A stretch of 32,000 bases of DNA, taken from contig NZ_CP074694.1 of NCBI RefSeq assembly GCF_018398935.1, positions 5,220,001 through 5,252,000 of the forward strand, given 5' to 3'. Positions 1 through 27,562 of this stretch are shown here, in pieces. This stretch comes from Telmatocola sphagniphila. Lineage in GTDB: Bacteria; Planctomycetota; Planctomycetia; Gemmatales; Gemmataceae. Below the pieces are notes generated by a model. The model was given only the letters and a program-made list of their open reading frames with translations. It did not search any database and had not been told where the DNA came from. The number at the start of each line of letters is the position of its first letter. The stretch's first letter is position 1. Position numbers and translations under genes: made by a program.

Positions 1-459
1 CGGCCGGAAGATCTCGAAGATGCCGTGCAGGAGATCTTTCTCCATTTGTGGACCAACGCCCATCGTTTTAATCCCTCCCTCTCCTCCGAGATGACTTTTG
101 TTACCATGCTGGCCCGGCGACGGTTGATTGATCGGCGGCGGCGAGAAGACCGGACGCCGGTCCTGGACCAATTTCCCGCCGACGTATGTGCTCCAGCCGT
201 CGAATTATCGACAGTGTTGGAGCATGGGGAGGAAGTGAGTCGGGCCAGAGAGGCTCTCCAGTTTTTGTCGATGGATCAGAGAGAGACTTTGCAGATGGCG
301 ATATTTCAGGGGATGACTCACGAGGAAATCGCACGAAAAACCAATTCTCCCCTGGGAACGGTGAAGACGCACTTGCGTCGCGGATTGATCCGACTGCGCG
401 AAGTATTGGATGAAGCAGCGACCGGTCGGCGAGTGATTGCAGAAGGAGGTGCCTCATGA
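1..459 (+). CDS. ECF-type RNA polymerase sigma factor (sigma-70 family), 5' end cut by window edge
   Basis: Frame 1 is open from base 1 (RPEDLEDAVQEIFLHLWTNAHRF...), which matches a sigma region 2 motif. A region 4 HTH follows (LSMDQRETLQMAIFQGMTHEEIARKTNSPLGTVKTHLRRGLIRLRE). Stop TGA 457-459 overlaps the next gene's ATG (ATGA), suggesting translational coupling. Confidence 0.85.
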   Translation, partial: RPEDLEDAVQEIFLHLWTNAHRFNPSLSSEMTFVTMLARRRLIDRRRREDRTPVLDQFPADVCAPAVELSTVLEHGEEVSRAREALQFLSMDQRETLQMAIFQGMTHEEIARKTNSPLGTVKTHLRRGLIRLREVLDEAATGRRVIAEGGAS

Positions 460-1259
460 GCACAGCCGATGAAATGCGTTTGATGGATCTGCTGGCCGAC
501 CGGGCCGTGGGAGAATTGAGTGTCGCCGAACAGGCTGAGTTAGCCGAATTACTGGCCCGGCATCCGGAATTCGATGAAAACTCCCTGGATCAGGCGGCGG
601 CTCTATTTGCGAGTATTGCTATGCCGGAAACTCACGAGAGCATGCCAGAGGATCTGCGACGCCGGATTGAGGCGCAGGCTAACCGGATTGTACCTGCGAA
701 TCGTGCGAAAAATTCCCTGGCCTTCCCAAGCTCCGCCGCGCGCGAAACAACTCGATCGCTCTTGGGTCGTTCTCTTTCTTGGGGTGGCTGGATTCTGGCA
801 GCCGGGTTGTTGATTGGCATTAGCTTCCTGGGCCGCGAAAAAGGAAAGGGAACTTCGGAGAGTGCCGCTCGCAAACTGGAACAATTTCTGGCAACCGAGA
901 AAGCGTATGTGCGAGCCGATGGGACAGCCCCGGATCTCAAGATTGCCGCCGGAGCCACCGGCTCGATTTATTGGAGCGGCGGTCAACGGCAGGAAGGCTA
1001 CATGAAGTTGAAGGGCGTGCCGGTGAACGATCCTGCGAGTAAGCAATACCAGCTTTGGATTTTCGACAAGGAACGAGATGAACGGTATCCGGTCGATGGC
1101 GGACTCTTCAACGTCGATTCCTCGGGAGAAGTGATCATTCCGATCACCCCGAAAATTCCCGTGAAGGAAGCCACGATGTTTGTGATTACGCGCGAGCCTC
1201 CGGGCGGTGTCGTGGTGTCCGATAGAAAGGAGATTGTTTTGGTGGCTTCGTTGAAGTAG
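456..1259 (+). CDS. Membrane-spanning anti-sigma factor with RskA-like C-terminal domain
   Basis: Overlaps the upstream ECF sigma gene by 4 bp. It has an acidic helical N-terminus and a single TM segment (WGGWILAAGLLIGISFLG). The C-terminus (YQLWIFDKERDERYPVDGGLFNV...MFVITREPPGGVVVSDRKEIVLVA) resembles the anti-sigma-K RskA extracytoplasmic domain. Family recognised by eye only. Confidence 0.7.
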   Translation: MSTADEMRLMDLLADRAVGELSVAEQAELAELLARHPEFDENSLDQAAALFASIAMPETHESMPEDLRRRIEAQANRIVPANRAKNSLAFPSSAARETTRSLLGRSLSWGGWILAAGLLIGISFLGREKGKGTSESAARKLEQFLATEKAYVRADGTAPDLKIAAGATGSIYWSGGQRQEGYMKLKGVPVNDPASKQYQLWIFDKERDERYPVDGGLFNVDSSGEVIIPITPKIPVKEATMFVITREPPGGVVVSDRKEIVLVASLK

Positions 1260-2715: not shown

Positions 2716-2815
2716 CTTTTGATAACTCTCGACTTTTTTTCATTTTTCCTGCGCCGCTTCACGAGATCTTGTCTCTAATAAAAGTCGATTCGGTACTCGA
2801 TCAGAGTTGTGCTTT

Positions 2816-4666
2816 ATGTCTTCGGAAACCTCGAGCCGTTTGCAGCAGTTTATTCGTAGACTCCGCGAGGAAGCGGTGCCGCCGGAGGATATGTGTTTGT
2901 GGAATCGTTACGTTCAGTCGGGCGATCAGGCTGCGTTCGAGATTTTGGTGTATCGTCATGGTCCGATGGTGTTGGCCTGTGCGCATCGTTTGCTTTCGAA
3001 TCGTACGGATAGCGAGGATGTGTTTCAGGCGACGTTTTTGAGTTTGGCCCGTTCAAAGCATCGGATTCGAGACTCCAAAGCTCTCTCTTCGTGGCTGTAC
3101 AAAACGACCTTCCGTTGCGCGCTCAGACTTCGAGCGCAGCGGAAGCAGGCCGTGCCTTTATACGATGAGACTCTTTCGAGCAATCCAACAGAAAGTGACC
3201 CGGCCTGGCGTGAGGTGAAAGGGGCTTTGGACGAGGAACTTTCGAAGTTGCCAGAGCGTCTTCGAATGCCGCTTGTGTTGTGTTATCTGAACGGTCTGTC
3301 TCGGGATGAGGCAGCGAAGCAGTTAGGCTGGTCGTTTACTTTATTGAAGCGACGTTTGGAAGAAGGGCGACGAGTATTGCGCGTTCGGTTGGAACGGCGG
3401 GGAATCTCGGCAGCGGGCTTGGCCTTAGCCGTGCTCTCACCTCAAGCGTTGCAGGCGATGGTGAGTCCGACTCTGGTAAATAGCTGTTTGGCCTTAATTT
3501 TTTGCAAAGAAACAAGTTTACCGGCCGGTATAGCCGCCTTGGTAATGAGTACATCCGCGATCACGAAAGGATTAGTCATGAAATCAATAGCGATGGCTGT
3601 ATTGTGTAGTGGTCTGGGCATCTGGACCTATACGAGCATGGGGCAAGGACTGGCTCCTCAGGAGAAGCCGGTTGTGAAGGCTGGTCCAGGGACGATAGGA
3701 GATACTTCGCGTGGGGAAATCAAATCGGAAGAGAGAACGGCGAGTTATACTCAGCAATTACGCAGCCTGGACAATCTCAAAAAAATTCTCTTGGCCGTGC
3801 ACGAGTATATGGATTTTACCAAGATCAATATGTTGCCCGCGGACTTCGAGGATGAAAACGGAAAACCGCTTCTGAGTTGGAGAGTCGAATTACTTCCCTT
3901 TTTGGGAGAAAAGGAACTTTATAAACAGTTTCATCACAACGAGCCTTGGGATAGCGAACAAAATTTAAAACTCATGGCCAAGATGCCGGAGGTGTATCGT
4001 GTCGGCTTCGAATCTAAGGATTCGACCCATACTCACTATCAAGTATTTGCGGGGCCCGGGACTCCGTTGCATCCGGTTCATGTGAATCAAGCGAAAGGTG
4101 GTCCAGGTGGCTCTTCTAAGAATCCCCGAAATTTAATCACCGTCTTTGATGTAACCGATGGAATGTCGAATACTCTGGGGGTCATCGAAGCGGGTCCCGC
4201 CGTTCCCTGGACTAAACCGGCCGATATTCCTTTCGATCCGACCAAGCCACTGACGAAAATTCAGGCTCTCTTTTCCAATAGTCTGCATTTGGCAATGATG
4301 GATGGAAGTACGCACGCAATACGTCCTGGCAGTGTCGAGGAAAAGACCATGAAAGCATTCATTGGCATGAATGAGGGCGAGATAGTCCCGGAGATGAGTT
4401 CCTTTCGTGCTCGGATAATCCCGATCTCTGCTGCGGAAAAGGAGGATTTCCAGCAACGAACGGCAAATAAAAAATCGTTGCTTGAAAAGATCATTGCCTT
4501 GCAGACCGAGCAGAAAGAATTACTGAAGAAATTCGAGCAACCAAATTCGGATCTGTCAGTTAATCAGGAGATGATTCAAAAACTGGAAAGCAAACTCGAA
4601 AAAATGCAGTGGGAAGTTGCCTGGATGAAACGAATTCTGGAAGAGGTCGAGAAAAAAGAGAAGTAA
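2816..4666 (+). CDS. Fusion protein: ECF sigma factor - TM helix - DUF1559-like domain - C-terminal coiled coil (paralog 1)
   Basis: The N-terminus has sigma region 2 (DSEDVFQATFLSLARS...WLYKTTFRCAL) and region 4 (LPERLRMPLVLCYLNGLSRDEAAKQLGWSFTLLKRRLEEGRRVLRVRL). Hydrophobic segments follow (GISAAGLALAVL..., VMKSIAMAVLCSGLGIWTYT). Next come DUF1559 signatures (LDNLKKILLAVHEY, LLSWRVELLPFLGEKELYKQF..PWDSEQN, DGMSNTLGVIEAGPAVPWTKPADIPFD, HLAMMDGSTHAI). The tail is a heptad-rich K/E segment. I place the start at ATG 2816 rather than the TTG at 2807 in the ORF track, because MSSETSSRLQQFIRRLREEAVPPED is conserved from that ATG in the paralog. Confidence 0.85.
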   Translation: MSSETSSRLQQFIRRLREEAVPPEDMCLWNRYVQSGDQAAFEILVYRHGPMVLACAHRLLSNRTDSEDVFQATFLSLARSKHRIRDSKALSSWLYKTTFRCALRLRAQRKQAVPLYDETLSSNPTESDPAWREVKGALDEELSKLPERLRMPLVLCYLNGLSRDEAAKQLGWSFTLLKRRLEEGRRVLRVRLERRGISAAGLALAVLSPQALQAMVSPTLVNSCLALIFCKETSLPAGIAALVMSTSAITKGLVMKSIAMAVLCSGLGIWTYTSMGQGLAPQEKPVVKAGPGTIGDTSRGEIKSEERTASYTQQLRSLDNLKKILLAVHEYMDFTKINMLPADFEDENGKPLLSWRVELLPFLGEKELYKQFHHNEPWDSEQNLKLMAKMPEVYRVGFESKDSTHTHYQVFAGPGTPLHPVHVNQAKGGPGGSSKNPRNLITVFDVTDGMSNTLGVIEAGPAVPWTKPADIPFDPTKPLTKIQALFSNSLHLAMMDGSTHAIRPGSVEEKTMKAFIGMNEGEIVPEMSSFRARIIPISAAEKEDFQQRTANKKSLLEKIIALQTEQKELLKKFEQPNSDLSVNQEMIQKLESKLEKMQWEVAWMKRILEEVEKKEK

Positions 4667-4806
4667 TTTTTTCGGCTTTCCTTGCTGAGAGCCAGCACGT
4701 TAGAGTTGATAAGCCAATTTCGTTTTTTTCATTTTCCTTGCGCCACCGAGAGAGTTCCCGGCTCTAATTATTGTCGGGAATGATTTGAGCCAGAGTGGCC
4801 TCTGTT

Positions 4807-6780
4807 ATGTCTTCGGAAACATCGAGCCGTTTGCAGCAGTTTATTCGTCGACTTCGCGAGGAAGCGGTGCCTCCGGAGGATGGGTGTTTATGGGATCGTT
4901 ACGTCCAGACGGGAGATCAGCATGCGTTTGAGATTTTGGTGTATCGTCATGGGCCGATGGTTTTAGCCTGTGCGTATCGGATGCTCTCGAATCGTACCGA
5001 CAGCGAAGATGTCTTTCAGGCCACGTTTTTGAGTTTGGCTCGTTCCAAGCATCGGATAAGAGACTCGAAAGCTCTTTCGTCCTGGCTGTACAAAACGACC
5101 TTCCGTAGTGCTCTTAAACTCCGCAACCGGACCAGACCAACTGAACAGTTACTTGAAGAAACACTTTCCTCTGACGGTAACGAAACAGATCTCGCCTGGC
5201 GTGAGGTGAAGGGGGCATTGGACGAGGAGTTGCAGAAGTTGCCGGAGCGACTTCGATTGCCGTTGTTGTTGTGTTATTTGCAGGGTTTATCTCGGGATGA
5301 AGCGGCGAAGCAGTTAGGCTGGTCGTTTACTTTATTGAAGCGACGTTTGGAAGAAGGTCGACGAGTATTGCGCGTTCGGTTGGAACGGCGGGGAATCTCG
5401 GCAGCGGGCTTGGCCTTAGCCGTGCTCTTACCTCAAGCATTGCAGGCGATGGTGAGTCCGACTCTGGTAAATAGCTGTCTGGCTTTGATCTTTTGCAAAG
5501 AGACTACAGTGCCCGCCGCGATAGCGGCGTTGACACTTACAACCTCTGCGATCACGAAAGGATTGGTAATGAAAGCGATAGCGACAACGGTGTTGTGTGC
5601 CGGTCTGGGAATCTGGTCTTATACGACTATGGGACAGGGAATAGGATTAATTCCTCCAGAGAAGGGAATTAATAAAGGGGTACCGGGAACGCTCGGCGAT
5701 TCTTCACAAGCAGAAAACGCTCCTCAGGAAAGAACGGCGAGTAATACGCAGCAATTACGCAGTCTAAATAATCTTAAGCAGATCGCTATCGCGATATTGA
5801 ACTATGAAGCCGCCTATGGTTATCTACCTGCGGACACAGTGGATCAAGATGGAAAAGCTCTTTTGAGTTGGCGAATTGAATTGCTACCCTACTTGGGCCG
5901 TGCGGATCTATACAACCAATTCAAGCGCGATCAAGCCTGGGACAGCGAGCACAATTTAAAACTTTTGGCCAAGATGCCGGATGTATATCGCGTTGGCTTT
6001 GAAGCGAAGGACTCGACGCATACTTACTATCAGGTTTTTGCAGGCCCCAATACTCCTCTGCATCCGATGCTTCGAGAGAAAGAGAAAGAGAAAGGGAAAG
6101 GCCCCCCGGGTGCTCTTGGCCTTGCTGGTAACAAGGCTGGTGCCGAAGTAGCCGGTCCAGGTGCAACGGGTCCAGTAGGCAGCTCTGGTCCGGGTGCGGG
6201 AATGGCCATGGGACCTGGCGCGGGAATGGGCCCTATGGATCCTCGCATTCGCATTCGCATTGCGGATATTTTCGATGGCACTTCAAATACCATTGGAGTC
6301 GTGGAAGCCGGTCCAGCAGTACCCTGGACCAAACCCGCCGATATTCCTTTCGATCCGACGAAGCCGCTACCAAAAAATTCAACACCCTTTACGAACAGTT
6401 TCCATCTGACCATGATCGACGGCACTACGCATGCCATACGTCCCAACATCGACCCGAAAATACTGAAGGATTTCATCGGCATGAACGATGGGGCAGTACT
6501 TCCAAGAATGAGTTCCTTTCATGCCGAAATCACGCCTCCCACGCCTACCGAGAAGGCGGAATTACAAAAGCGAATTGAACAGAATGGTACATTGTTGGAG
6601 AAAATGGCAGCCTTGCAGTCCGAGCAGCGAGAACTTCTCGGCAAGATCAATCATGGGAGCCTGGACATCATAGCGCACCGCGAAGTCGCCGATTTATTCG
6701 AAAAAACATTGAAGCAGATTCAGGCAGAAAACCAGCAGTTGAAAGCGATTATTCAAGAGATCGAGAAACAGGGGAAGTAA
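4807..6780 (+). CDS. Fusion protein: ECF sigma factor - TM helix - DUF1559-like domain - C-terminal coiled coil (paralog 2, with Gly/Pro-rich insertion)
   Basis: Same architecture as 2816-4666 and collinear over the full length. DUF1559 signatures are present (LNNLKQIAIAILNYEAAYGYLP, LLSWRIELLPYLGRADLYNQF..AWDSEHN, DGTSNTIGVVEAGPAVPWTKPADIPFD, HLTMIDGTTHAI). An extra low-complexity block is encoded at about 6061-6264. Start taken at ATG 4807 (the track begins at GTG 4795). Confidence 0.85.
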   Translation: MSSETSSRLQQFIRRLREEAVPPEDGCLWDRYVQTGDQHAFEILVYRHGPMVLACAYRMLSNRTDSEDVFQATFLSLARSKHRIRDSKALSSWLYKTTFRSALKLRNRTRPTEQLLEETLSSDGNETDLAWREVKGALDEELQKLPERLRLPLLLCYLQGLSRDEAAKQLGWSFTLLKRRLEEGRRVLRVRLERRGISAAGLALAVLLPQALQAMVSPTLVNSCLALIFCKETTVPAAIAALTLTTSAITKGLVMKAIATTVLCAGLGIWSYTTMGQGIGLIPPEKGINKGVPGTLGDSSQAENAPQERTASNTQQLRSLNNLKQIAIAILNYEAAYGYLPADTVDQDGKALLSWRIELLPYLGRADLYNQFKRDQAWDSEHNLKLLAKMPDVYRVGFEAKDSTHTYYQVFAGPNTPLHPMLREKEKEKGKGPPGALGLAGNKAGAEVAGPGATGPVGSSGPGAGMAMGPGAGMGPMDPRIRIRIADIFDGTSNTIGVVEAGPAVPWTKPADIPFDPTKPLPKNSTPFTNSFHLTMIDGTTHAIRPNIDPKILKDFIGMNDGAVLPRMSSFHAEITPPTPTEKAELQKRIEQNGTLLEKMAALQSEQRELLGKINHGSLDIIAHREVADLFEKTLKQIQAENQQLKAIIQEIEKQGK

Positions 6781-6870: not shown

Positions 6871-8304
6871 CTATTCTTCCTTCCCCCTAAACTCCAAAAA
6901 GCTCCAAGATTCCGGCAGCGCCTTCCGGCGCATGTCGGGATTCCAGAGTCGAAAGCCGAGAATCTCGGGGACTTGCGTTTTTCCCACACTGCTAATGGCC
7001 AGGCCATCCTTGGGAAATCGCATCAGCAAATTTTGACCCGAGTAAGGATCTTTCGGCAGCTCCGAAATATATTTGGGAACCAGTTCCAGCACCGATTTCG
7101 GCCAGCGCTGATTTTCCAAGCGAAAGCGTTCCGTAGCCAGGGCCAGGATCGCACATCTCAAACAGGCTCGATCCGCATGAACGGCCGAAGCAATTTTCGA
7201 GAGCGAATCATCCAGGTGGGGTATGCCGCTGATGAAGCGTTTGATCTGGAACCCGTCCCGTTCGAGTTTCTGTTGTCGTTCTCTTTGAATCTCCTCGAAA
7301 CTCGGCAATATCTCCATCTCGGGGCCCTTCGCCGCATCGATATATTTCGTGACTTCTTCCAGAAATTCGGCCAGGTCATGCTCCACCCAGGGCTGGTAGC
7401 GGAAACGCAGCGTCGCATTCCCCAGCAGACTAAAATCCGCACGAATGTCGACTTCATACATCGAAAGGATCGTTTCGATTTTTTCGTAATCCAGATGATC
7501 GACCATGCGGCGCAAGAAAAATTCGTAATTCCAGGCCCGACTGGATCGCAGGCAGTTGGCCAGCAGTGGAGTGCGATTTTCCTCCTCTAAAGAATGCTGT
7601 AACTTTGCCAACTTCTCAACGGAGGCCGAGCCACGCGATAAAACTTCCTGAAGAGTAAAGACCAGAAAGCGGATGTTATCCGAACGCACATGCATGGATG
7701 TGAGAATTTCATCTTCGGGTAAATATCGCGAAAGATTCAATAAAGCGTGAATGTCGCGCAGGCCGTCATCAATCCGGCTCAGTTGTCCGTTCGCCCGGGA
7801 ATTCCAGCGTATTAAACTGGCTACCTGTTGAACTTCGTTGATCCAGACCAGGTTTTGGGAACCATCAATCGACTGCGGCACTCTTCCTTTCGGAAAGTCG
7901 GCTATACGCACGGCCAGCTGCACCTGCTTCTGGCGTTGCCCCAGCATATCGCCGAGCCAGTCACCGATTTCGAAAGGAATAGGATCGGGAAAGTGGTACT
8001 TGCCAAAGATGTTGGCGGTATTAGTTCGCGTTGGCAGAATGTTGCCGATAGCGTTGATCTCACGGATCAGTCTGTAACCGTTTTCTTCCTCTGAAACCGG
8101 AGTCCGGGCTTCGACAATTCGTTGCCATTCCCAGCCTGGATCTTCCCGCTCAAGTCGGGCCAGGATCCGTTCCAAACTGGCATGGGAAACCGATTGAATG
8201 TAGGCGCGATAGCCCAGGGTCGCGCCGCAAATCAGAAGTAAAGTGAATCCCAAAAGCAGCAGAGCCCGACGGGTCCGCTTATCCGGCAGCCGAAAGAATT
8301 TCAT
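6871..8304 (-). CDS. Hypothetical membrane-anchored protein
   Basis: A 477-codon ORF. The N-terminus has a basic stretch plus a hydrophobic anchor (MKFFRLPDKRTRRALLLLGFTLLLICGATLG). The C-terminal motif (WPKSVLELVPKYISELPKDPYSGQNLLMRFPKDGLAISSVG) recalls the DP(W/F/Y)-G-x-P...S-x-G tail of GspG-type pseudopilins and many uncharacterised Planctomycete proteins. No confident family assignment. Confidence 0.65.
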   Translation of the reverse strand: MKFFRLPDKRTRRALLLLGFTLLLICGATLGYRAYIQSVSHASLERILARLEREDPGWEWQRIVEARTPVSEEENGYRLIREINAIGNILPTRTNTANIFGKYHFPDPIPFEIGDWLGDMLGQRQKQVQLAVRIADFPKGRVPQSIDGSQNLVWINEVQQVASLIRWNSRANGQLSRIDDGLRDIHALLNLSRYLPEDEILTSMHVRSDNIRFLVFTLQEVLSRGSASVEKLAKLQHSLEEENRTPLLANCLRSSRAWNYEFFLRRMVDHLDYEKIETILSMYEVDIRADFSLLGNATLRFRYQPWVEHDLAEFLEEVTKYIDAAKGPEMEILPSFEEIQRERQQKLERDGFQIKRFISGIPHLDDSLSKIASAVHADRACLRCAILALATERFRLENQRWPKSVLELVPKYISELPKDPYSGQNLLMRFPKDGLAISSVGKTQVPEILGFRLWNPDMRRKALPESWSFLEFRGKEE

Positions 8305-13198: not shown

Positions 13199-16084
13199 AT
13201 GTGCGGCCATTTTGTAGGGAATTATATGCCGGGAATTCTCTCAGCGACGATTAAGTCCCCAGTTCGTCTTCAGTCCAATGGATCGACCATCGATGCCCAT
13301 ATTTCTGAAGAAAGTCGAGTGGTAACCCGTGTTGTCTCGCGATGGCAGGCTGAACAGGGTTCAGAGGAATTGAATTCCAAATCCGGCAACTCGGCGGACT
13401 TTATGAGTTTCGCCAGCATTCGAAATAATTCCATGCTCCAACGGGAATCGTTCCCCGCGGTAGGCGACATCTTCATGGGGTTCAAACTGGTATCGATTCT
13501 GGGTACTGGTGGCTTTGCCCGAGTTTATCTGGCTCAGCAGGAAAATCTGGCGGATCGCCCCGTTGCTTTGAAGGTGACTTCGCTTCCCAACAGGGAACCG
13601 CAACGGCTGGCGCGTCTGCAGCATCAGAACATCATGCCGATTCACTCGGTGCATTATGCAAATCCTTTTCAAGCGGTTTGCATGCCCTATCTGGGTACGG
13701 TAACACTCCACGATGTCATTCGCCTGGCCTTCAAAGATCGCAAAGCTCCCAGCAGCGGGGGCACTATCTTCGAAACCGAACGGGCTATGCGGACGACATT
13801 GATCGAAACGTATCCCGATGCGGTGCCGCAGATGGAACCGAGCATAGAGGGCTGCGAAAAATCCTTCCGATTCAAGAATGAACTTCTCCAGTTAGGTTAT
13901 GTGGAAGCCATTCTGACCATTGTTTCTCGAATCTGCGACGGTTTAGAGCACGCGCACAATGTGGGTGTGATTCATCGCGATCTTAAACCCGCGAATATCC
14001 TCCTGTCGACCGATGGTCAGCCTTTGCTTCTGGATTTCAACCTGGCGGTCGATGTTCGATCGAACGATCAGATTGAGGCGGGCGGAACTATTCCTTACAT
14101 GGCTCCCGAGCAACTTCGGGCGTTGATGAAACAGCGCGAGGAAGCGATTACCCCCAGTTGCGACTTGTATGCTCTGGGTATCATCGCTTACGAGCTACTG
14201 ACGGGAAGCGCGCCCTTTCCAGCACTGACGCGCGAGAACAGCAAATACCAGTTCGATATGTCGGCAACGGAAAATGCCCGCAAATCCGAACCCGATGCCG
14301 CCTCTAAACACAATCCGGAAGTGCCCGTTTCCGTCGATATTATTTTGCGGAAGCTACTGGCTTATCACGAAAAGGATCGCTACGAATCGGCCGCGCAATT
14401 GAAGGAAGACATTGATCGCCAGTTAAAAAATCTGTCCCTGCGATATGCCCGGGATCCGATTACCGTTCGCATTGAGAAATTGCATCGTCGAAATCGCAAG
14501 GTTTTACCCAGCTTGGCCGTGACGGGAGCTTTGATTCTCATGGGATCTATTGCAATCGCCAACGACCGATTGCAATTCATCGAAAATAAATCTCAAGCAG
14601 ACAAAAAATTCCTGGAGTCTATCAGTCAGCTCGATCTGGCTCGGGTCGAATCCAGTGAATCTTTATTACCCGGAGTCCGCGATCAGGGATTAAATCGAAT
14701 GACCCGGGTCATGGATAACTACCTGTTACTGGGTGATAGAAACTCGAATTCTAATACTCCCTTCGAATATCTTTCCGTCGAACAGCAGGGTCAGTTGCGG
14801 GAACGATTTGGAGAATCTCTACTCATTCTGGCCGATCAGGAAAAAAGAAAAAATGATCTAAATTCCTGGCATAACGCGTTGGATTTAAACAAACGCGCCG
14901 AGAAGCTCTTCGGCAGTGACAAAATGCCGGAGTATGGCTGGCAACAGCAAAAAGAACTGGCGGAGAAGCTCGAAGACAAAAAAATTCAAGAGCGGGCCGG
15001 CTACTTGCAGCATCTGCCCGAATCGAACACTTCCACGAATTCTCTCTTGAAAATGAACGATTTTATCAGACGAAACCAGTTTGAAGATGCAATTGCCGAG
15101 TTGAAAATTTACATCGAGAACAATCCGACCAGAGCGGACGGTCATATACTTCTCGCAAACTGCTATAGGATGACTCAGCAGTCAATAAAAGCATTGGAAA
15201 GACTAAATGTTGCCATATCGCTCGATCCGAAAAATTGCTTGGCTTTATATAAACGGGCCGAGATCCAGATGGATCTTTCAGATTATGATGCAGCTTTAAA
15301 GGATATAAATAATGCTTTGGCAATGGATTCTCTGGGAGGTCTCGGATATTGGGTGAAAGCAAAATATTATAGCCGCATAACTCCTGTAAATTTTAAAGAA
15401 GGCTTGAAAGCTTTATACGAAGCCGAAAAAGAGAATTACGAATTATTTCCGATCTATGCATTACGAATTCGATTTTTGTTAGTAAATAATTTCGAAGAAG
15501 CAAAGACAATAATTGATTACTTGAATCAAATTCCTGCCAGAGGTATACAAGATTACAGCCACCGCGCCTGGGCCAATATTCAGGTAAAACAATACGAAAT
15601 AGCTCGTCAGGATTACGAAGCTGCGCTCAGTTTTGATCCAAACAACACATCGCTTCTTCTGGGATTGTCGACGGCTCTTGCATTTAAAAATGATTACAGT
15701 AGTGCTGCGGAAGTCTGTAAGCGTGTACTTGAAATATCTCCCAGATCGCACCTGGCTCAAAGTTCTTTAGCAATTTATCTGGCTCGTCTGGGGGAACATG
15801 AAAAAGCTCGAAAGCTAGCGGATGAATCGGTTGTTAATTGCGAAGATCCCGAATTTTATTATAAAGCGGCCTGCGTTTACTCTCTGGGCAGTCAAAATTA
15901 CCCGGAATACGGTCCACTCGCCACAAGATATCTGGTCAAAGCGGCCACGAAAAAATTTGAATACTTCAATAAAATGGAAGCTGACAAGGATATTGACCCG
16001 ATCCGAAAAATTCCCGAATACAAGGCCTTGGTCAAAGCTAAAGATACTCTGCAGAACCTATTTAACCTCAGCTTGAATAAGTGA
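13199..16084 (+). CDS. Ser/Thr protein kinase with TM helix and C-terminal TPR repeat region
   Basis: Has the glycine loop and VAIK-like motif (LGTGGFARVYLA...VALKV), catalytic loop HRDLKPANILL, DFN in place of DFG, and PYMAPEQ. A TM segment (VLPSLAVTGALILMGSIAIA) follows. About 400 aa of TPR-like repeats come next (AIAELKIYIENNPTRADGHILLANCY..., ALYKRAEIQMDLSDYDAALKDINNALAMD...). Alternative starts exist at 13226 and 13403. Confidence 0.85.
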   Translation: MCGHFVGNYMPGILSATIKSPVRLQSNGSTIDAHISEESRVVTRVVSRWQAEQGSEELNSKSGNSADFMSFASIRNNSMLQRESFPAVGDIFMGFKLVSILGTGGFARVYLAQQENLADRPVALKVTSLPNREPQRLARLQHQNIMPIHSVHYANPFQAVCMPYLGTVTLHDVIRLAFKDRKAPSSGGTIFETERAMRTTLIETYPDAVPQMEPSIEGCEKSFRFKNELLQLGYVEAILTIVSRICDGLEHAHNVGVIHRDLKPANILLSTDGQPLLLDFNLAVDVRSNDQIEAGGTIPYMAPEQLRALMKQREEAITPSCDLYALGIIAYELLTGSAPFPALTRENSKYQFDMSATENARKSEPDAASKHNPEVPVSVDIILRKLLAYHEKDRYESAAQLKEDIDRQLKNLSLRYARDPITVRIEKLHRRNRKVLPSLAVTGALILMGSIAIANDRLQFIENKSQADKKFLESISQLDLARVESSESLLPGVRDQGLNRMTRVMDNYLLLGDRNSNSNTPFEYLSVEQQGQLRERFGESLLILADQEKRKNDLNSWHNALDLNKRAEKLFGSDKMPEYGWQQQKELAEKLEDKKIQERAGYLQHLPESNTSTNSLLKMNDFIRRNQFEDAIAELKIYIENNPTRADGHILLANCYRMTQQSIKALERLNVAISLDPKNCLALYKRAEIQMDLSDYDAALKDINNALAMDSLGGLGYWVKAKYYSRITPVNFKEGLKALYEAEKENYELFPIYALRIRFLLVNNFEEAKTIIDYLNQIPARGIQDYSHRAWANIQVKQYEIARQDYEAALSFDPNNTSLLLGLSTALAFKNDYSSAAEVCKRVLEISPRSHLAQSSLAIYLARLGEHEKARKLADESVVNCEDPEFYYKAACVYSLGSQNYPEYGPLATRYLVKAATKKFEYFNKMEADKDIDPIRKIPEYKALVKAKDTLQNLFNLSLNK

Positions 16085-16228: not shown

Positions 16229-16843
16229 GTGCCGACATCCACCAATCCCGAACGTCTGCTGCAGGATTTACGTGGCGGTTCCAGCGAGTTGCTGGGTCCC
16301 CTGCTTGAGCAATATCGAAATTACCTCAAACTGCTGGCCCGCTGGGAAATTGGCCATCGGTTGCAGGGCAAACTCGATGCTTCCGATCTCGTCCAGGAAA
16401 CCTTTCTGGACGCTCACAAGTACTTCCCGAATTTTCGCGGCCACAGTGAAGGCGAATTCATCCAGTGGATCAAGAAGATCATGGCCGGGAAGCTGGCCAA
16501 TCATATTCGCCATTATTTCGGCACCCAGGCCCGGGACGCCAGCCGCGAACGCGCTATTGAACTCGATTTGGACCAATCCTCCCGGCTATTCGATCGCGGG
16601 CTAATGGCTCTTCAAAGCAGCCCGAGTGAAAAAGCCAGTCAGCGCGAACAGTCCGTTCTTTTGGCGGAAGCTCTGGAAGGTCTGTCCCCCGATTACCGGG
16701 AAGTTCTGATACTGCGCCATCTGGAGGAACTGACGTTTCCGCAGATTTCCGAGCGTATGGGCCGAACTTTGGACAGCGTACAAAAACTCTGGATCCGGGC
16801 TTTGGCCCAACTACGCACCCGTTTCGATAATTCCCATGAGTAA
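16229..16843 (+). CDS. ECF-type RNA polymerase sigma factor (Planctomycete ECF group genomically paired with Ser/Thr kinases)
   Basis: Region 2 is present (DASDLVQETFLDAHKYFPNFRGHSEGEFIQWIKKIMAGKLANHIRHY), as is region 4 (LSPDYREVLILRHLEELTFPQISERMGRTLDSVQKLWIRALAQLR). GTG start. The gene overlaps the downstream kinase gene by 8 bp (ATGAGTAA). Confidence 0.85.
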   Translation: MPTSTNPERLLQDLRGGSSELLGPLLEQYRNYLKLLARWEIGHRLQGKLDASDLVQETFLDAHKYFPNFRGHSEGEFIQWIKKIMAGKLANHIRHYFGTQARDASRERAIELDLDQSSRLFDRGLMALQSSPSEKASQREQSVLLAEALEGLSPDYREVLILRHLEELTFPQISERMGRTLDSVQKLWIRALAQLRTRFDNSHE

Positions 16844-19226
16844 TTCCTTCCGAAAATCTTCTCTGGGCGATTCTTCGACGCCTGATCGCTGGCAGGATCC
16901 GGATCCCTCCATGGATCCCCGCCTGTTCCAGGCCGTTCAGGATTACATGAAAGAGCTTGAGAGCGGTCGGAGGCCAAATCGCAAGATATTCCTTGCGAAG
17001 TATTCCGAACTGGGTGAAGAGCTGGCGCGTTGCATCGACGGCCTGGAAATGCTGCACGGCGCATTTTCCTCTTCGTCCAACGCCTCCAAGACGGCTGCGG
17101 AACCGAGCGCGATCCCGGGGGATCCGCTGGGCGATTTTCAAATTATTCGCGAAATTGGTCGCGGCGGCATGGGCATTGTTTATGAAGCCAAACAATTATC
17201 TCTCGGTAGAAAAGTCGCCTTGAAGGTTCTCCCATTTGCAGCCGCTCTCGATGCCAATCAGCTGCAGCGGTTCAAAAACGAGGCTCAGGCGGCGGCTCAA
17301 CTCCACCACTCCAATATCGTGCCTATCTACGGAGTGGGAAGTGAACGAGGTGTCCACTATTACGCCATGCAGCTGATCGAAGGGCAATCCCTCGACCTGA
17401 TCCTCGATCAGATGCGTCAGAAGTATGGGATTAATCGACTGCAGGACAATGGAACGACCGCCTCTTTGCATGCCGTTTCTCGGTCGCCGATCGACCTGGC
17501 GAAAGTGAGCGAAGTCCCGGCCTCGATCCCCTCGTCTCTGGCGACGAAGACCACCCAACAAACAGTATTCTCCCAAACGCTGACCACGCAGCGCGAAACT
17601 TCGGTTCGCGAGTTTCATAGAACCGCCGCCCGATTGATGATGCAGGCCGCCGAGGCCCTCGAACACGCGCATTCGTATGGCATTATTCATCGCGATATCA
17701 AACCCGCCAATCTCATTGTGGATGCCCGCGGGAATCTCTGGGTTACGGACTTCGGCTTGGCGCATATCCAAACCGAAGCCAATCTCACCCGTACGGGCGA
17801 CATCATCGGCACCTTCCGTTACATGAGTCCGGAACAGGCCAGCGGGGATCGCGTTCTGCTCGATCATCGCTGCGATATTTATTCGTTAGGCGCTTCGTTC
17901 TACGAATGGCTGACGCTACAGCCGGTCTATCCCGGTAAGAATCGGGCCAAGCTGCTCGATCAAATTTTGAATCAGGATCCCAAGTCTCCCCGTTCCATTA
18001 ATAAATCCGTACCCGTGGAACTGGAAACGATTGTAATGAAAGCCTTGGCGAAGAGCCCGGGGGATCGCTATTCGAGTGCCGGGGAGCTAGCCGCCGATTT
18101 GCAGCGATTTTTGGACGATAAACCGATTCTGGCTCGCCCGCCGAGTATAGTCGACCTCACCCGCAAATGGTGTAAGCGGCATCCGTCGACGCTAGTGGCC
18201 GCATTCGTTGTGCTGCTGCTTTCCGTGATTGGTCTGACTGTAAACAATTATTTGATAAAGATCGAAAAGGATAAAACCAAAGCGGCTAGCCAACAGGTCG
18301 AAAATGCTCGAATTCAGGAGAAAGCGCGGGCCGAGGAAGCCGAGAAAAGATTCCGCAAATCGCGGGGTATCGTCGATACGATGATTCGTATTGGGGAAGA
18401 GGAACTCCCCGAACAGCAGATGTTCCAACCAATTCGTAGGCGCCTGCTGGAGGCGGCCTTACAGTACTACACGGAATTTGTCGAAGAGCGCAGCGACGAT
18501 CCCAAGATGCAAGCGGAATTGTTGCAGGTCGAGGAGCGGGTCAATCAAATTCTGACGGAACTCTCGCAGTTGCAGGGTGCGGACCAGATCACGCTCGTTG
18601 AAACTCGAGGCGTTCATCGCGATTTAAACGTTACGGAAGAACAGAAATCTCAGCTCTTTAAAGCCAGTAACGACTGGAAATCCCGCCGCGCCCAAATCAT
18701 CAAGGCAAGTAAAAATATCGAAACCCGTCGCAAAGAACTGGTAGTTCTGACTCTGGAAGTAAACTCGACAATCTCAAAAATTCTTACACCCGATCAGGCC
18801 CATAGACTACGGCAAATTTCCCTTCAGATGAAAGGTCCTATGGCTTTTCGGGATGAAGAAGTTGCCCGAAAACTCGATTTGACGAACGAGCAAAGAATCC
18901 GCATTCGGGAAATCGATAACGAAGCGATATCGATATTGTTTCAAAACGATGGTCCGCGTGGGCCGGGAGGACCTGGTGGTCCCGGTGGCCCGGGAGGAGG
19001 TGGGCCCCCTGAAGGCCCCAACTCCGACGGACGAGGCGATCGAGGTTCCAAATTCGGGAGAGGATTCGGAGGTGGCCCCAAGGAGGGCTTCCAGGACCCG
19101 ATGGACGAAAAATTAAAGCTTGTCATCAAAGACATGCTGAATCTCCTGACGGAGGAACAGAAAAAACGCTGGAAAGAAATGATTGGAGAACCTTATCAAA
19201 AAGGACCACCTCCCAAGAAGCCGTAG
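16836..19226 (+). CDS. Ser/Thr protein kinase with TM helix, coiled coil, LTXXQ-type repeats and Gly/Pro-rich tract
   Basis: Kinase motifs are present (IGRGGMGIVYEA...VALKV, HRDIKPANLIV, DFGLA, YMSPEQ). The TM segment is STLVAAFVVLLLSVIGLTVNNYLI. The extracytoplasmic part has a coiled coil and four L(x)TxEQ/LTPDQ motifs (LNVTEEQKSQL, LTPDQAHRL, LTNEQRIRI, LTEEQKKRW). A GPRGPGGPGGPGGPGGGGPPEGP tract is also present. Confidence 0.85.
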   Translation: MSNSFRKSSLGDSSTPDRWQDPDPSMDPRLFQAVQDYMKELESGRRPNRKIFLAKYSELGEELARCIDGLEMLHGAFSSSSNASKTAAEPSAIPGDPLGDFQIIREIGRGGMGIVYEAKQLSLGRKVALKVLPFAAALDANQLQRFKNEAQAAAQLHHSNIVPIYGVGSERGVHYYAMQLIEGQSLDLILDQMRQKYGINRLQDNGTTASLHAVSRSPIDLAKVSEVPASIPSSLATKTTQQTVFSQTLTTQRETSVREFHRTAARLMMQAAEALEHAHSYGIIHRDIKPANLIVDARGNLWVTDFGLAHIQTEANLTRTGDIIGTFRYMSPEQASGDRVLLDHRCDIYSLGASFYEWLTLQPVYPGKNRAKLLDQILNQDPKSPRSINKSVPVELETIVMKALAKSPGDRYSSAGELAADLQRFLDDKPILARPPSIVDLTRKWCKRHPSTLVAAFVVLLLSVIGLTVNNYLIKIEKDKTKAASQQVENARIQEKARAEEAEKRFRKSRGIVDTMIRIGEEELPEQQMFQPIRRRLLEAALQYYTEFVEERSDDPKMQAELLQVEERVNQILTELSQLQGADQITLVETRGVHRDLNVTEEQKSQLFKASNDWKSRRAQIIKASKNIETRRKELVVLTLEVNSTISKILTPDQAHRLRQISLQMKGPMAFRDEEVARKLDLTNEQRIRIREIDNEAISILFQNDGPRGPGGPGGPGGPGGGGPPEGPNSDGRGDRGSKFGRGFGGGPKEGFQDPMDEKLKLVIKDMLNLLTEEQKKRWKEMIGEPYQKGPPPKKP

Positions 19227-24462: not shown

Positions 24463-25692
24463 CTAAAAGCGGGCGACGCTGAAGGGTTTCAAGTCGATGT
24501 GCGGCTTTCGATTGCTCAGCGCCTCGGCAATCAGTTTCCCAGTTACCGGGGCCATGCTCAAACCGAGCATGTTGTGCCCGGCCGCAATCCAGACATTCGA
24601 ATATTTCGGACTGCGGTCGATGATCGGTTTCGAATCGTAGGTCATCGGCCGCCAGCCGTACCATTCCTCTTCGATCGGATCGTTGGCCGGATCCAGATAG
24701 TGCTTGGCCGCTTCTTGCAGATAATTCAACCGCGTTCTGTTGATGCTCGTGTCATAACCGGCGAATTCCATGGTGGAGCCGATGCGGTAGCCGCTGTGCA
24801 TCGGCGTCACGGCCACCCGATGTTCTTCGAAAATCAACGGAATACTGGGGCACTTGATCGGGCGCGGCATGGTAATCGAATAGCCCTTGCCCGGTTGAAT
24901 CGGGATTTTGCAACCCAGTTCCCGATTCAGAAAAGGCGTCATCGCACCGGTGGCCACCACGAAGTAATCGGCGGTCATCTCTCCCTGGGATGTGGCAATC
25001 GCGGAACCATTGCCAACGAAGCCATCGACGGAGCAATTTTCCACGATGGTCGCGCCGCGCTCGGTCAGAATTTTACGGAAAGCCGACATCAGTTTGTCAG
25101 GCCGGAGATGCGCATCCCCTTCGTAGAGCCAGCCGCCCGCCAGACCCGGCTTCAGTGCCGGTTCCAGTTTCAGAAGTTCTTCTCCCGCAAATGGCTTGGC
25201 CGGCATGGCAAAAGTATCTTTGAGCAGATGATCGGTTTCTTCGTAGTGATGAAACGCCTTATCCGTCTGGAAAACGAAGAGCAATCCCTTCTTTTCCCAT
25301 TCGCAATCGATCGGCTCCTGGGCCAGCAATTCGTCGTAGAGATGTCGCGAAGAATTTAAAAGAGCTTGAATCTCATGCCCGGCCTGCAGCATGTCGCGAT
25401 TGTTGCAGCGGCGGGCAAAGTGCAACAGCCAGGACCAGAGTTTCCAATCGAGGCGAGGCTTGATATAAAACGGGGCCGATTTTTTAAACATGGAGCCGAG
25501 GGCGGTTTTGATCGCTCCCGGCGTGGTCAGTGGTAGCACATGGGAAGGACATACGAAACCGCAATTGCCGCGCGAACAGGCCTGCCCGAAACCGGCGCGA
25601 TCCAGGATCGTCAGCGAATGCCCTTCTTTTTGCAGGTAATAGGCACATGCCGCGCCGACCACTCCGCCCCCGATAACGACGATCTTCGCCAT
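24463..25692 (-). CDS. FAD-dependent oxidoreductase, DadA-like; candidate D-hydroxyproline dehydrogenase
   Basis: N-terminal FAD fold MAKIVVIGGGVVGAACAYYLQKEGHSLTILDR with DadA-like length and layout. The gene lies 12 bp downstream of the hydroxyproline-epimerase-like gene in the same orientation. Confidence 0.7.
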   Translation of the reverse strand: MAKIVVIGGGVVGAACAYYLQKEGHSLTILDRAGFGQACSRGNCGFVCPSHVLPLTTPGAIKTALGSMFKKSAPFYIKPRLDWKLWSWLLHFARRCNNRDMLQAGHEIQALLNSSRHLYDELLAQEPIDCEWEKKGLLFVFQTDKAFHHYEETDHLLKDTFAMPAKPFAGEELLKLEPALKPGLAGGWLYEGDAHLRPDKLMSAFRKILTERGATIVENCSVDGFVGNGSAIATSQGEMTADYFVVATGAMTPFLNRELGCKIPIQPGKGYSITMPRPIKCPSIPLIFEEHRVAVTPMHSGYRIGSTMEFAGYDTSINRTRLNYLQEAAKHYLDPANDPIEEEWYGWRPMTYDSKPIIDRSPKYSNVWIAAGHNMLGLSMAPVTGKLIAEALSNRKPHIDLKPFSVARF

Positions 25693-25704
25693 GTCGCTTT
25701 CCTG

Positions 25705-26640
25705 CTAACTAATTCCATTTCGAAAGGGATCGGCCGGGTCCACCAACAAAGTGTTATCCCCGGTGATGTAGGCTTCGCCGCGAATGGTGGGATAAAGCAC
25801 GCCGTCGCGTACCTGCACCCAGCCTTCGAAGACGCTGCCGATGATACTCTCCTGTCGCCAGATCTGCCCCGGTTGGAGTTTCCCGGCCGCGTGGAGACAA
25901 GCCAGCTTGGCGGATGTTCCGGTTCCACAGGGAGAGCGGTCGTATGCCGCCCCTGGGCAAAGCACAAAATTCCGACCCTGATTAGTAGTCTCCGCGGCGG
26001 GTCCGATCAATTCGATGTGATCGATTTCGCCACCCGCTTCGCCGGTGATGCGATTGGCTTCCAGCGACTGCCGAATCTTGTTTGAACAATCGAGCAGCCG
26101 ATTCAAATGCTTCAAAGAAAGCGGAATACCGTGATCTTCACAGAGAAAAAACCAGTTGCCGCCCCAGGCGATGTCGCCCGAGAGCATGCCATAGCCCTCG
26201 ACAGGTATCCGCACCTGGGTTGAGTAACGGTAGCTGGGCACGTTATCGAGTGTCACCCGGTTTTTACCGTCGTATTCGAAAGGAACAATGCCGACTGTGG
26301 TTTCCAGCAAGTGCCGGCCGGGAGTGATTTTGCCCAGGTGGCCGAGCGTTACCCCGACACCGATGGTGCCATGGCCGCACATGTTCAGATAGCCAACGTT
26401 ATTGAAGAAGATCACCCCGGCCACGCAGCGCGGATCGGTGGGGGGAACCAGCAGGGCACCCACCAGTACATCATGGCCGCGCGGTTCCAGAATCACCGTT
26501 TTTCGAAAATCGTCGAAGCGGTCGCGAAAAATGGTTTTGCGTTCGGACAGTGGCCCGACACCGAGATCGGGGCCGCCTTCCACTATCACACGAGTCGGCT
26601 CGCCGCCCGTGTGGGAATCGATTACGCGAATCTTCTTCAT
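25705..26640 (-). CDS. Proline racemase family protein, two-cysteine type; candidate 4-hydroxyproline 2-epimerase
   Basis: Both catalytic cysteine motifs are intact (NMCGHGTIG and DRSPCGTGTSAKLA). This indicates a racemase/epimerase rather than the Cys-to-Thr/Ser dehydratase type. Flanking DadA-like and DHDPS-family genes favour hydroxyproline as substrate. Confidence 0.8.
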   Translation of the reverse strand: MKKIRVIDSHTGGEPTRVIVEGGPDLGVGPLSERKTIFRDRFDDFRKTVILEPRGHDVLVGALLVPPTDPRCVAGVIFFNNVGYLNMCGHGTIGVGVTLGHLGKITPGRHLLETTVGIVPFEYDGKNRVTLDNVPSYRYSTQVRIPVEGYGMLSGDIAWGGNWFFLCEDHGIPLSLKHLNRLLDCSNKIRQSLEANRITGEAGGEIDHIELIGPAAETTNQGRNFVLCPGAAYDRSPCGTGTSAKLACLHAAGKLQPGQIWRQESIIGSVFEGWVQVRDGVLYPTIRGEAYITGDNTLLVDPADPFRNGIS

Positions 26641-26662
26641 TCGAGTGGCACCCGAAAAGGAA

Positions 26663-27562
26663 TTAGCCGATTTTAGGACGGTTGGCTATCGCGGTGCGGA
26701 TGATTTTCAGAATTGCTTCCCGCTCGGCCCCGACGATAGGCAGACGCGGCGCCCGCACCATTTCGCTGCCCATGCCGACCTCGGCCATGGCCAATTTGAT
26801 GTACTGCACCAGTTTCATGTGGGTATCCAGGTGCAATAACGGGGTGTACCAGCGGTAGACTTTCACAGCCTCGGCATAGTTATTCGCCATGGCCAGGTCC
26901 CAAAGCAAACGGTTTTCGGCCGGGAAGGCATTCACCAGTCCCGATACCCAACCGACGGCCCCGAGCATCACGCTTTCCAGAGCCAGATCGTCCACGCCGC
27001 AGAGCAACGTGTAGCGATCGCCGCAGACATTCTTCAAATCCGTGATCCGGCGAACGTTTTCCGACGATTCCTTGATGGCAACGAACTTCGGTTCGTCCGC
27101 CATGCTCAGGAACATCTCGGGAGTGATGTCGACTCCGTAAGCGACCGGATTGTTATAAACCATGATCGGCAGATCGCTGGCCTTGGCCACGGTTCGGAAG
27201 TGGACGATCGTTTCACGCGGGTCGCTCTTGTAGACCATGCCGGGCAGGACCATTAAGCCGTGAATACCCGCTTTCTGGCAATCGGCGGAATAGCGACAGG
27301 CCAAATTTGTGGTCGTCTCGGCCACACCGCTGAGCACTGGCACCCGACCCTTAGCCGCTTCCAGAGCGCACTTGAGGACCTGGAACTTCTCAGCGTACTC
27401 CAGCGAGCAATTCTCCCCGACGGTGCCGAGCATGATCAGCCCGTGCACCCCGGCCGCGATCAACTTCTCGATATGCAGGGCCGTTCCTTCGAAATCGATG
27501 GATTGATCGGCGTGGAACTGTGTGGTTACCGCAGGGTAGACACCTTGCCAGGTCACTTTCAT
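26663..27562 (-). CDS. DHDPS/N-acetylneuraminate lyase family protein; candidate 1-pyrroline-4-hydroxy-2-carboxylate deaminase
   Basis: A class I aldolase family pattern is present (GLIMLGTVGE, GVAETTT, Schiff-base lysine context FVAIKESS). It is the first gene of a tightly spaced 3-gene minus-strand cluster with the epimerase and FAD dehydrogenase. Confidence 0.7.
   Translation of the reverse strand: MKVTWQGVYPAVTTQFHADQSIDFEGTALHIEKLIAAGVHGLIMLGTVGENCSLEYAEKFQVLKCALEAAKGRVPVLSGVAETTTNLACRYSADCQKAGIHGLMVLPGMVYKSDPRETIVHFRTVAKASDLPIMVYNNPVAYGVDITPEMFLSMADEPKFVAIKESSENVRRITDLKNVCGDRYTLLCGVDDLALESVMLGAVGWVSGLVNAFPAENRLLWDLAMANNYAEAVKVYRWYTPLLHLDTHMKLVQYIKLAMAEVGMGSEMVRAPRLPIVGAEREAILKIIRTAIANRPKIG

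Follow-up and report, generated by a model that had tools for sequence, protein, structure and literature searches.

What might a protein do that begins as an extracytoplasmic function (ECF) sigma factor and ends in a DUF1559 domain? The question is raised by two adjacent genes in a stretch of 32,000 nucleotides from Telmatocola sphagniphila (Gemmataceae, Planctomycetota), the whole of which is referred to here as the window. The two open reading frames (ORFs) are as follows.

2816-4666, forward strand: ORF1, 616 amino acids, boundaries identical to those of NCBI QVL31291.1
4807-6780, forward strand: ORF2, 657 amino acids, boundaries identical to those of NCBI QVL31292.1; this protein is also database match P0001

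We propose that each gene fairly probably encodes a one-component ECF sigma factor of an ECF57-like type, which would be tethered to the membrane by a single pass, would receive its input through DUF1559, and would be released by proteolysis.

No paralogous family of Planctomycetes is larger than DUF1559. A planctomycetal genome holds ECF sigma factors by the dozen, and its DUF1559 genes number from dozens to about a hundred. To our knowledge, no function has been demonstrated either for extension-bearing ECFs or for DUF1559. In the literature, ECFs with C-terminal extensions are well known, including membrane-anchored ones from Planctomycetes (PMC7826278, PMC7671368, PMC8999054). DUF1559 is described as a huge family of unknown function, with 68 paralogs in Planctopirus limnophila of which two are essential (PMC10632474), and its members have been described as prepilin-type proteins (PMC8567305). 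We found no literature linking DUF1559 (SBP_bac_10) to ECF extensions, in agreement with a first-pass annotation of the window that took such a role to be undescribed; the supplementary tables and heat maps of the ECF classification papers might list it. The ECF type discussed here is thus known and the DUF1559 extension appears to be new, and the family of fusions is large but unremarked in databases. The NCBI label of both proteins is solely "sigma-70 family RNA polymerase sigma factor".

Two uninterrupted genes with a common layout

Both ORFs are open throughout on the forward strand, with no stop codon or frameshift inside, and this finding, like the identical NCBI boundaries, bears out the uninterrupted reading first proposed for them. 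The two proteins share 65% amino acid identity over their full length. Each polypeptide runs from an ECF sigma domain through apolar helices, a transmembrane (TM) helix and a linker into DUF1559 and a coiled-coil hairpin. Below, pLDDT is the predicted local distance difference test of AlphaFold2, and dS is the number of synonymous substitutions per synonymous site.

2816-3403, forward strand: ORF1 ECF sigma domain, residues 1-196 (sigma2 44-109, sigma4 137-186; Cys55 and Cys156)
3404-3574, forward strand: ORF1 conserved apolar helical segment, residues 197-253, which separates sigma4 from the TM helix
3575-3640, forward strand: ORF1 predicted single TM helix, about residues 254-275
3641-3730, forward strand: ORF1 disordered linker rich in Pro, Gly and Ala, about residues 276-305 (about 32 amino acids), pLDDT < 50
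3731-4405, forward strand: ORF1 DUF1559 (SBP_bac_10) domain, LSWR subfamily, residues 306-530
4421-4666, forward strand: ORF1 heptad helical hairpin, residues 536-616, and stop codon
4807-5631, forward strand: ORF2 sigma domain, apolar segment and TM module, residues 1-275 (80-86% amino acid identity to ORF1; dS 0.53-0.73)
5728-6519, forward strand: ORF2 DUF1559 domain, about residues 308-571, with an insert of about 45 residues
6535-6780, forward strand: ORF2 heptad helical hairpin, residues 577-657, and stop codon

The AlphaFold2 model of ORF1, built with 80 homologs as input, has a mean pLDDT of 83.8. It comprises a confident sigma domain (1-195), short helices (200-246; pLDDT 78-93), a low-confidence helix (248-265), a disordered stretch (266-299), a very confident globular part (311-530) and two hairpin helices (539-573 and 580-615). 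The tail, which had been described from the outset as heptad-rich, has a hydrophobic periodicity of 3.5 residues, is modeled as a helical hairpin with pLDDT > 90, and matches exclusively coiled coils in the PDB.

The sigma domain and its clade

Pfam Sigma70_r2 matches ORF1 with 38.4 bits and ORF2 with 40.1 bits (gathering cut-off 24), and Sigma70_r4_2 matches them with 38.5 and 35.2 bits, respectively (gathering cut-off 25.7). The NCBIfam model TIGR02937 (sigma70-ECF) scores 66.4 bits in ORF1 and 73.6 bits in ORF2 against a cut-off of 42.9. A scan of Pfam and NCBIfam gave no match to the r1 or r3 sigma domains in either ORF. With sigma2 and sigma4 present and sigma1 and sigma3 absent, we classify both proteins as ECF (group 4) sigma-70 factors. 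In Foldseek searches the modeled sigma part resembled the solved ECF sigma factors SigW, sigma-E and AlgU (E values of 1e-5 to 1e-4, probability 1.00). Domain models and fold comparison alike uphold the first-pass annotation of a complete ECF sigma factor with regions 2 and 4.

In ECF57 proteins, WD40-like extensions are prevalent though not universal, and a conserved cysteine in sigma2 is linked to another in sigma4 (PMC8999054); planctomycetal genomes carry 5.3 ECF57 copies each (PMC7826278). Cys156 is present in 80 of the 80 aligned family members. The sigma2 cysteine occupies column 56 in 78% of the members, and columns 55 and 56 pooled account for 69 of the 80; the window copies, which carry Cys55 and Cys156, have it displaced by one residue relative to the usual family column. 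Among the 40 closest genomic sigma-plus-TM relatives without DUF1559, 17 bear WD40 propellers, and many retain the apolar/TM module. Our profile of this module (HYD) likewise matches relatives without DUF1559, WD40-type ECFs included. Pfam detected no WD40 domain in ORF1 or ORF2. A search with the N-terminal 275 residues returned chiefly short fragments. Because of the WD40-bearing relatives, the common apolar/TM module and the two hallmark cysteines described for ECF57 (PMC8999054), we place the fusions in the planctomycetal ECF clade already known for membrane-anchored C-terminal extensions, ECF57-like as judged by the described features.

Membrane topology

A segment was counted as TM-like when its best 19-residue hydropathy reached at least 1.6, and the test was applied over the 80-member family alignment. 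Segment 254-273 passes in 78% of the members and is the sole segment to do so. It consists of about 20 residues without any charge, and the loop preceding it averages 1.9 lysine or arginine residues and no acidic residue. The two other apolar stretches reach that value in <20% of the members: 197-208 has just 12 residues, too short for a TM helix, and 218-244 has charged insertions. A three-pass topology was rejected, as these two stretches are not conserved as TM helices, and such a topology, too, would leave DUF1559 outside. The hydrophobic segments that had first been placed between the domains therefore reduce to one conserved TM helix, the other apolar stretches not being TM-like. The apolar segment as a whole (197-253, about 55 amino acids) is nearly free of charge across the family and is present in WD40-type ECFs too, and the linker varies across the alignment in both length and composition.

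Since a single pass with its positive side inside places the N terminus in the cytoplasm, the sigma domain is most likely cytoplasmic and DUF1559 most likely extracytoplasmic (N-in/C-out), as the first-pass annotation had it. Independent support for DUF1559 lying outside comes from stand-alone proteins of the same DUF1559 subfamily. An N-terminal hydrophobic segment is present in 39 of the 45 complete ones; several of these segments resemble Sec signal peptides (judged from the sequence), and the prepilin motif occurs in 0 of the 45. The sigma factor plus TM helix had also been said to sit exactly where canonical DUF1559 proteins have their prepilin helix. A membrane helix does precede DUF1559, but a linker of about 32 residues intervenes and the helix is homologous to that of WD40-type ECFs rather than to a prepilin helix.

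A zinc-binding anti-sigma motif at Cys224/Cys230 was considered and rejected, both cysteines not being conserved in the family. In 90% of the family a methionine stands seven residues before the TM helix, in the alignment column of ORF1 Ser247. Several database "stand-alone" DUF1559 proteins (P0124, P0128, P0132, P0137 and P0139) begin at that methionine (MTVTKxxW...); these entries could be truncated gene calls, or they could reflect an internal start yielding a TM-DUF1559 product devoid of the sigma domain. An internal start at this position was set aside for the window copies, which have serine there.

A non-prepilin branch of DUF1559

The Pfam model SBP_bac_10, which is DUF1559 (PF07596), matches ORF1 with 54.8 bits and ORF2 with 93.5 bits (gathering cut-off 23.3), so that the DUF1559 model and both Pfam sigma models exceed their gathering cut-offs in both ORFs. 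The best match spans model positions 13-178 of 268. Because it begins at about residue 306 (model position about 13), the whole globular part of DUF1559 appears to have been kept, with the pilin helix alone missing. Every sequence block first quoted as diagnostic of DUF1559 is found in ORF1 and ORF2. The fused domain has the family-wide NLKQI helix and DG(T)SNT...E block, together with the subfamily-specific invariant motifs LSWRvxxLP, PWDSxxN and VPWTKPxD; invariant residues include W355, R356, W378, D379, N383 and W465 (ORF1 numbering).

The prepilin motif (PF07963, TIGR02532) is absent from ORF1 and ORF2 and present in a control gene of the window (31086-32000, forward strand). The product of this gene has N_methyl at residues 4-29, directly ahead of SBP_bac_10 at residues 33-272, and it is indeed the canonical prepilin-type DUF1559 protein for which it had been taken. 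H-X9-DG (TIGR04294) gave no NCBIfam match at E values up to 1 in the C-terminal halves of ORF1 and ORF2, which read H-X4-DG (LHLAMMDGS) in its place. The fused and the canonical domain of the window can be aligned at the level of motifs only. On these sequence features we regard the fused domain as a distinct, non-prepilin "LSWR / VPWTKPxD" branch of DUF1559.

Modeled in isolation with 83 sequences, the DUF1559 domain of ORF1 reaches a pLDDT of 92.8 and a predicted template modeling score of 0.90. In this model an N-terminal helix of 24 residues leads into five strands. The domain is modeled as a single small alpha/beta domain rather than a two-lobed solute-binding fold, and no solute-binding protein was among the Foldseek matches in the PDB. 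The insert of ORF2 (~6094-6240, residues ~430-478) is a low-complexity sequence of about 45 amino acids, rich in Gly, Pro and Ala, in a loop of DUF1559. At the same site ORF1 has a short loop, which is the sole low-confidence part of its domain model.

Size, spread and stability of the fusion family

Our survey covered the 120 best matches from a collection of 5.8 billion proteins. Sigma-DUF1559 fusions make up 117 of them; 100 of these 117 have every profiled module (SIG-HYD-DUF-TAIL, the linker not being profiled), and five have 2-3 DUF1559 repeats. Among the best 150 of the representatives at 50% identity there are at least about 106 fusions, the weakest listed match having an E value of 1e-147. 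Members come from Zavarzinella formosa, Fimbriiglobus ruber, Urbifossiella and many Gemmataceae metagenome-assembled genomes (MAGs). In members from Isosphaeraceae (Singulisphaera, Paludisphaera) the fusion is present and the coiled-coil tail is absent. The fusion is seen in isolates of Zavarzinella, Fimbriiglobus, Singulisphaera and Paludisphaera. In a neighbor-joining tree of 120 sigma domains, the DUF1559-fused ones largely cluster, with 6 inferred switches, and the fusion is therefore stable rather than sporadic. We take it to be a large, old and conserved family under purifying selection.

The same DUF1559 branch is found behind the membrane helix of Ser/Thr kinases (P0057, L032 and L045) and behind the TM helix of a BlaR1-type M56 protease (P0052). 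One of the kinases (L032) also bears 3-keto-disaccharide hydrolase domains, and another (L045) also Poly_export and SecDF-P1. In the kinase and BlaR1-type proteins, this position corresponds to the sensor position of those architectures. The placement strengthens the earlier suggestion that DUF1559 is a sensory module; sensing itself is something that we infer.

Further DUF1559 proteins of 900-2235 amino acids (P0362 with 2235 amino acids, P0369, P0106, P0390 and others) contain 3-7 tandem copies of the LSWR type. Tandem arrays of 2-4 same-strand ECF genes with long extensions occur at loci L017, L072, L013, L019, L020, L040, L041 and L076, all in Gemmataceae or Isosphaeraceae MAGs; the longest, at L017 and L072, have four in a row. 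As such arrays recur in these MAGs, tandem duplication appears to be a general habit of this ECF clade rather than something special to the window.

Divergence of the tandem pair

Between ORF1 and ORF2, dS is 0.53-0.73 over codons 1-272 and saturated (>2) from codon 273 on, with a break exactly at the TM/linker boundary. The ratio of nonsynonymous to synonymous substitution rates (dN/dS) is 0.12-0.27 in every region. Because of the dS break, the sigma-plus-TM modules must share a younger ancestor than the sensor halves; the younger module would have arisen by either gene conversion or partial duplication. A break at this boundary fits the module-duplication model of Pinto and da Fonseca for planctomycetal ECFs and their C-terminal extensions (PMC7671368).

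Sigma4 is 100% identical between the two copies over residues 161-200. Since sigma4 is identical and the sensors have diverged, the tandem copies probably recognize the same or very similar promoters and sense different inputs. About 90 bp upstream of each gene are also duplicated and contain two conserved blocks.

2738-2787, forward strand: two conserved blocks upstream of ORF1, TTTCATTTTTCCTGCGCC and TCTCTAATAAAAGTCG, separated by 16 nt; possible promoter or operator
4727-4776, forward strand: the same two blocks before ORF2, with identical 16-nt spacing

Their consensus, TTTCATTTTyCyTGCGCC, 16 nt, kCTCTAATwAwwGTCG, occurs nowhere else in the window. No sigma-70-type promoter was predicted upstream of ORF1 or ORF2.

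Proposed mechanism and alternatives

In the mechanism that we propose, DUF1559 would serve in the periplasm as an input domain that binds a ligand or a partner protein, and the membrane tether would keep the sigma domain inactive. The apolar segment (197-250) possibly folds back on sigma2/sigma4 and holds a closed state. A signal at DUF1559 would lead to cleavage first of the linker and subsequently of the Gly/Ala-rich TM helix (regulated intramembrane proteolysis), and this cleavage would free an active sigma factor. The two copies would thereby probably couple two different inputs to the same or very similar promoters, those in their own duplicated upstream regions included.

A precedent for such activation is IutY of Pseudomonas putida, a fusion of sigma and anti-sigma factor that is activated through proteolysis by Prc and RseP, and similar proteolytic activation has been predicted for the actinobacterial ECF48, ECF52 and ECF53 (PMC8999054). 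By analogy with IutY, regulated proteolysis is the most likely mode of activation. There is a hint of cis-inhibition in the ORF1 AlphaFold2 model, where helices 218-246 have a pLDDT of 78-93 versus about 45 for the TM helix. The modeled sigma2/sigma4 arrangement has a root-mean-square deviation of 9-12 A to anti-sigma-bound ECFs and of 22-29 A to RNA polymerase-bound ECFs. The modeling thus weakly suggests that the apolar segment might act as the inhibitor.

Several observations weigh against this mechanism. No anti-sigma domain (zf-HC2, FecR, RskA or other) was matched by Pfam in ORF1 or ORF2 at E values up to 0.1, and neither a protease gene nor a conserved neighbor was found around the genes, apart from the L042 homolog described below. 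If cleavage takes place within the TM helix, about 60-75 apolar residues would remain on the sigma domain. The TM helix itself is moderately hydrophobic (Kyte-Doolittle about 1.6) and has an AlphaFold2 pLDDT of only about 45, and the basis of the topology is hydropathy, flanking charges and analogy with relatives. The upstream blocks bear no resemblance to a known ECF promoter motif. Finally, Foldseek matched no solved fold in the PDB to the DUF1559 model, which leaves no pointer to a ligand.

The main rival is a sigma factor that stays intact and membrane-bound in the manner of ToxR or CadC, with a DUF1559 ligand, dimerization of the tail, or both altering the conformation on the cytoplasmic side and so relieving cis-inhibition, and RNA polymerase being recruited at the membrane without cleavage. 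The conserved coiled-coil hairpin could oligomerize, the roughly 55 apolar residues that link sigma4 to the TM helix are both conserved and confidently modeled, and the locus has no linked protease. Moreover, a conformational change via the two conserved cysteines has been suggested for ECF57 (PMC8999054), and both cysteines are present in the fusions. We nevertheless consider this alternative unlikely, as no active membrane-bound sigma factor is documented in the literature surveyed, one TM helix followed by about 32 disordered residues would transmit conformation poorly, and the tail is absent from the Isosphaeraceae members. That DUF1559 has no regulatory role at all strikes us as less likely still. 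The fusion would then be a by-product of a duplicated sigma-plus-TM module landing ahead of a secreted DUF1559 gene, and the protein would be constitutively inactive or a mere anchor for DUF1559. Precisely this origin has been proposed for planctomycetal C-terminal extensions (PMC7671368), and it agrees with the different histories of the two halves on either side of the dS break, with the existence of stand-alone secreted relatives and with neighboring genes that are not conserved. Against it stand the age and stability of the architecture (at least 100 clusters at 50% identity in two families, and 6 switches in 120), the purifying selection on both halves, and the recurrence of the same domain in the sensor slot of kinases and of a BlaR1-type protein.

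An even number of membrane passes, or none, would leave the extension in the cytoplasm, where it might act on the sigma domain through direct contact, the mode of regulation seen in ECF41 and ECF42. In principle the apolar residues 197-244 could add passes, and the TM helix is modeled with low confidence; yet the two stretches within 197-244 are TM-like in few family members, three passes would still put DUF1559 outside, the stand-alone relatives start with a signal-peptide-like segment, and the kinase and BlaR1-type fusions carry the domain after the TM helix, on the non-catalytic side. We therefore hold a cytoplasmic extension to be very improbable. As for a sequencing, assembly or gene-calling artifact that joined a sigma gene to a DUF1559 gene, split copies do exist at a few MAG loci (L008, L010, L062 and L063), and these look like assembly errors or pseudogenes. 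The artifact is effectively refuted by two intact copies in a complete genome with identical NCBI gene calls, by more than 100 independent fusions from many sources, by reading frames free of stop codons and frameshifts, and by a dN/dS of 0.12-0.27 along the whole length, in line with the first-pass annotation, which had argued against an artifact from the two copies. Release of a membrane-tethered, DUF1559-sensing sigma factor by proteolysis is consequently the explanation that we prefer.

Other genes in the window

Just upstream of the fusions, and separate from them, lies a sigma/anti-sigma pair of the conventional kind.

25-459, forward strand: canonical SigK-like ECF sigma gene, with its 5' end beyond the window edge
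456-1259, forward strand: RskA-type anti-sigma gene, overlapping the sigma gene by 4 nt

No gene adjacent to ORF1 or ORF2 encodes a Pfam-detectable anti-sigma domain. The RskA gene pairs with the sigma gene at 25-459, so that the fusions lack a separate adjacent anti-sigma gene, as had been noted at first sight.

Convergent to ORF2 is a gene on the reverse strand (6871-8304) for a protein of 477 amino acids that has a TM helix at its N terminus and matches no Pfam model. Its sole homolog among the 80 loci (L042, 9380-10855, reverse strand; 23% identity, E = 3e-29) is likewise convergent and follows a sigma-TM gene with a long C-terminal extension. This protein may be a partner, or the match may be coincidental.

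The window is rich in signaling genes. An ECF sigma gene (16229-16843, forward strand) overlaps a Ser/Thr kinase gene (16836-19226, forward strand), and the resulting ECF-kinase pair belongs to a type for which control by phosphorylation has been proposed. Ahead of this pair lies the gene of another kinase, one joined to TPR repeats (13199-16084, forward strand). Immediately upstream of the canonical DUF1559 gene is a small ORF with a carboxypeptidase-regulatory-like domain (30565-31017, forward strand). On the reverse strand, genes for an FAD-dependent oxidoreductase (DAO), a proline-racemase-family protein and a DHDPS-family protein follow in series (24463-27562), and this looks like a hydroxyproline-catabolism cluster.

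Significance

With its predicted place beyond the membrane, at the sensor position of three different signaling architectures, one branch of DUF1559 gains a concrete and testable role as an input domain. As the output of a sigma factor can be read by RNA-seq, candidate ligands or stimuli of DUF1559 become screenable, which makes the system accessible to experiment. The family further provides a clean natural example of sensors being swapped on a constant sigma-plus-TM chassis, and the synonymous-site break in the tandem pair indicates that chassis and sensor have had separate histories. Rather doubtfully, the non-prepilin LSWR branch could be a general extracytoplasmic input domain, connected on separate occasions to each of three outputs: ECF sigma factors, Ser/Thr kinases and BlaR1-type proteases. 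By speculative extension, the pilin-derived head might monitor the state of the DUF1559 pilin or pseudopilin machinery in the same cell, or of the substrates of that machinery. If this were true, envelope-fiber or secretion status would be coupled to transcription via a sigma factor that is itself the direct substrate of intramembrane proteolysis.

Comparison with known systems

The fusions share with the canonical "PulG-like" DUF1559 proteins (PF07596) of Planctomycetes a homologous globular domain, including the NLKQI helix and the DG(T)SNT...E block. In contrast to these, they have no prepilin leader, N-methylation motif or H-X9-DG, and they have LSWR...PWDSxxN and VPWTKPxD. The LSWR branch is joined via a flexible linker to a TM helix or a signal-peptide-like segment, and assembly into a pilus-like fiber is therefore unlikely. 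PknB-type receptor kinases and BlaR1/MecR1-type M56 sensor-proteases resemble the fusions in that their planctomycetal members, named above, carry an LSWR DUF1559 in the extracytoplasmic sensor slot; they differ in that their output is a kinase or metalloprotease, not a sigma factor, and that they often have 2-4 DUF1559 repeats.

Like ECF57 (formerly ECF01-Gob), the fusions are planctomycetal, occur as many paralogs per genome and stand frequently in tandem arrays. Both have a sigma module with one conserved cysteine each in sigma2 and sigma4, an apolar segment and a TM helix, and neither has an adjacent anti-sigma gene. The extension is where they part, being DUF1559 plus a coiled-coil hairpin in the fusions and a beta-propeller in ECF57.

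IutY (ECF243, Pseudomonas putida) and SCO4117 (ECF52, Streptomyces coelicolor) are likewise single chains that run from a cytoplasmic ECF sigma domain across the membrane to a sensing domain outside. Those proteins have a FecR-like or zinc-finger anti-sigma domain before the membrane, whereas the fusions have just the apolar segment of about 55 residues, which matches no Pfam model. The sensor domains are unrelated, and IutY relies on a TonB-dependent receptor. Among known systems, IutY, with its demonstrated release by Prc and RseP, is the best mechanistic analog of the fusions.

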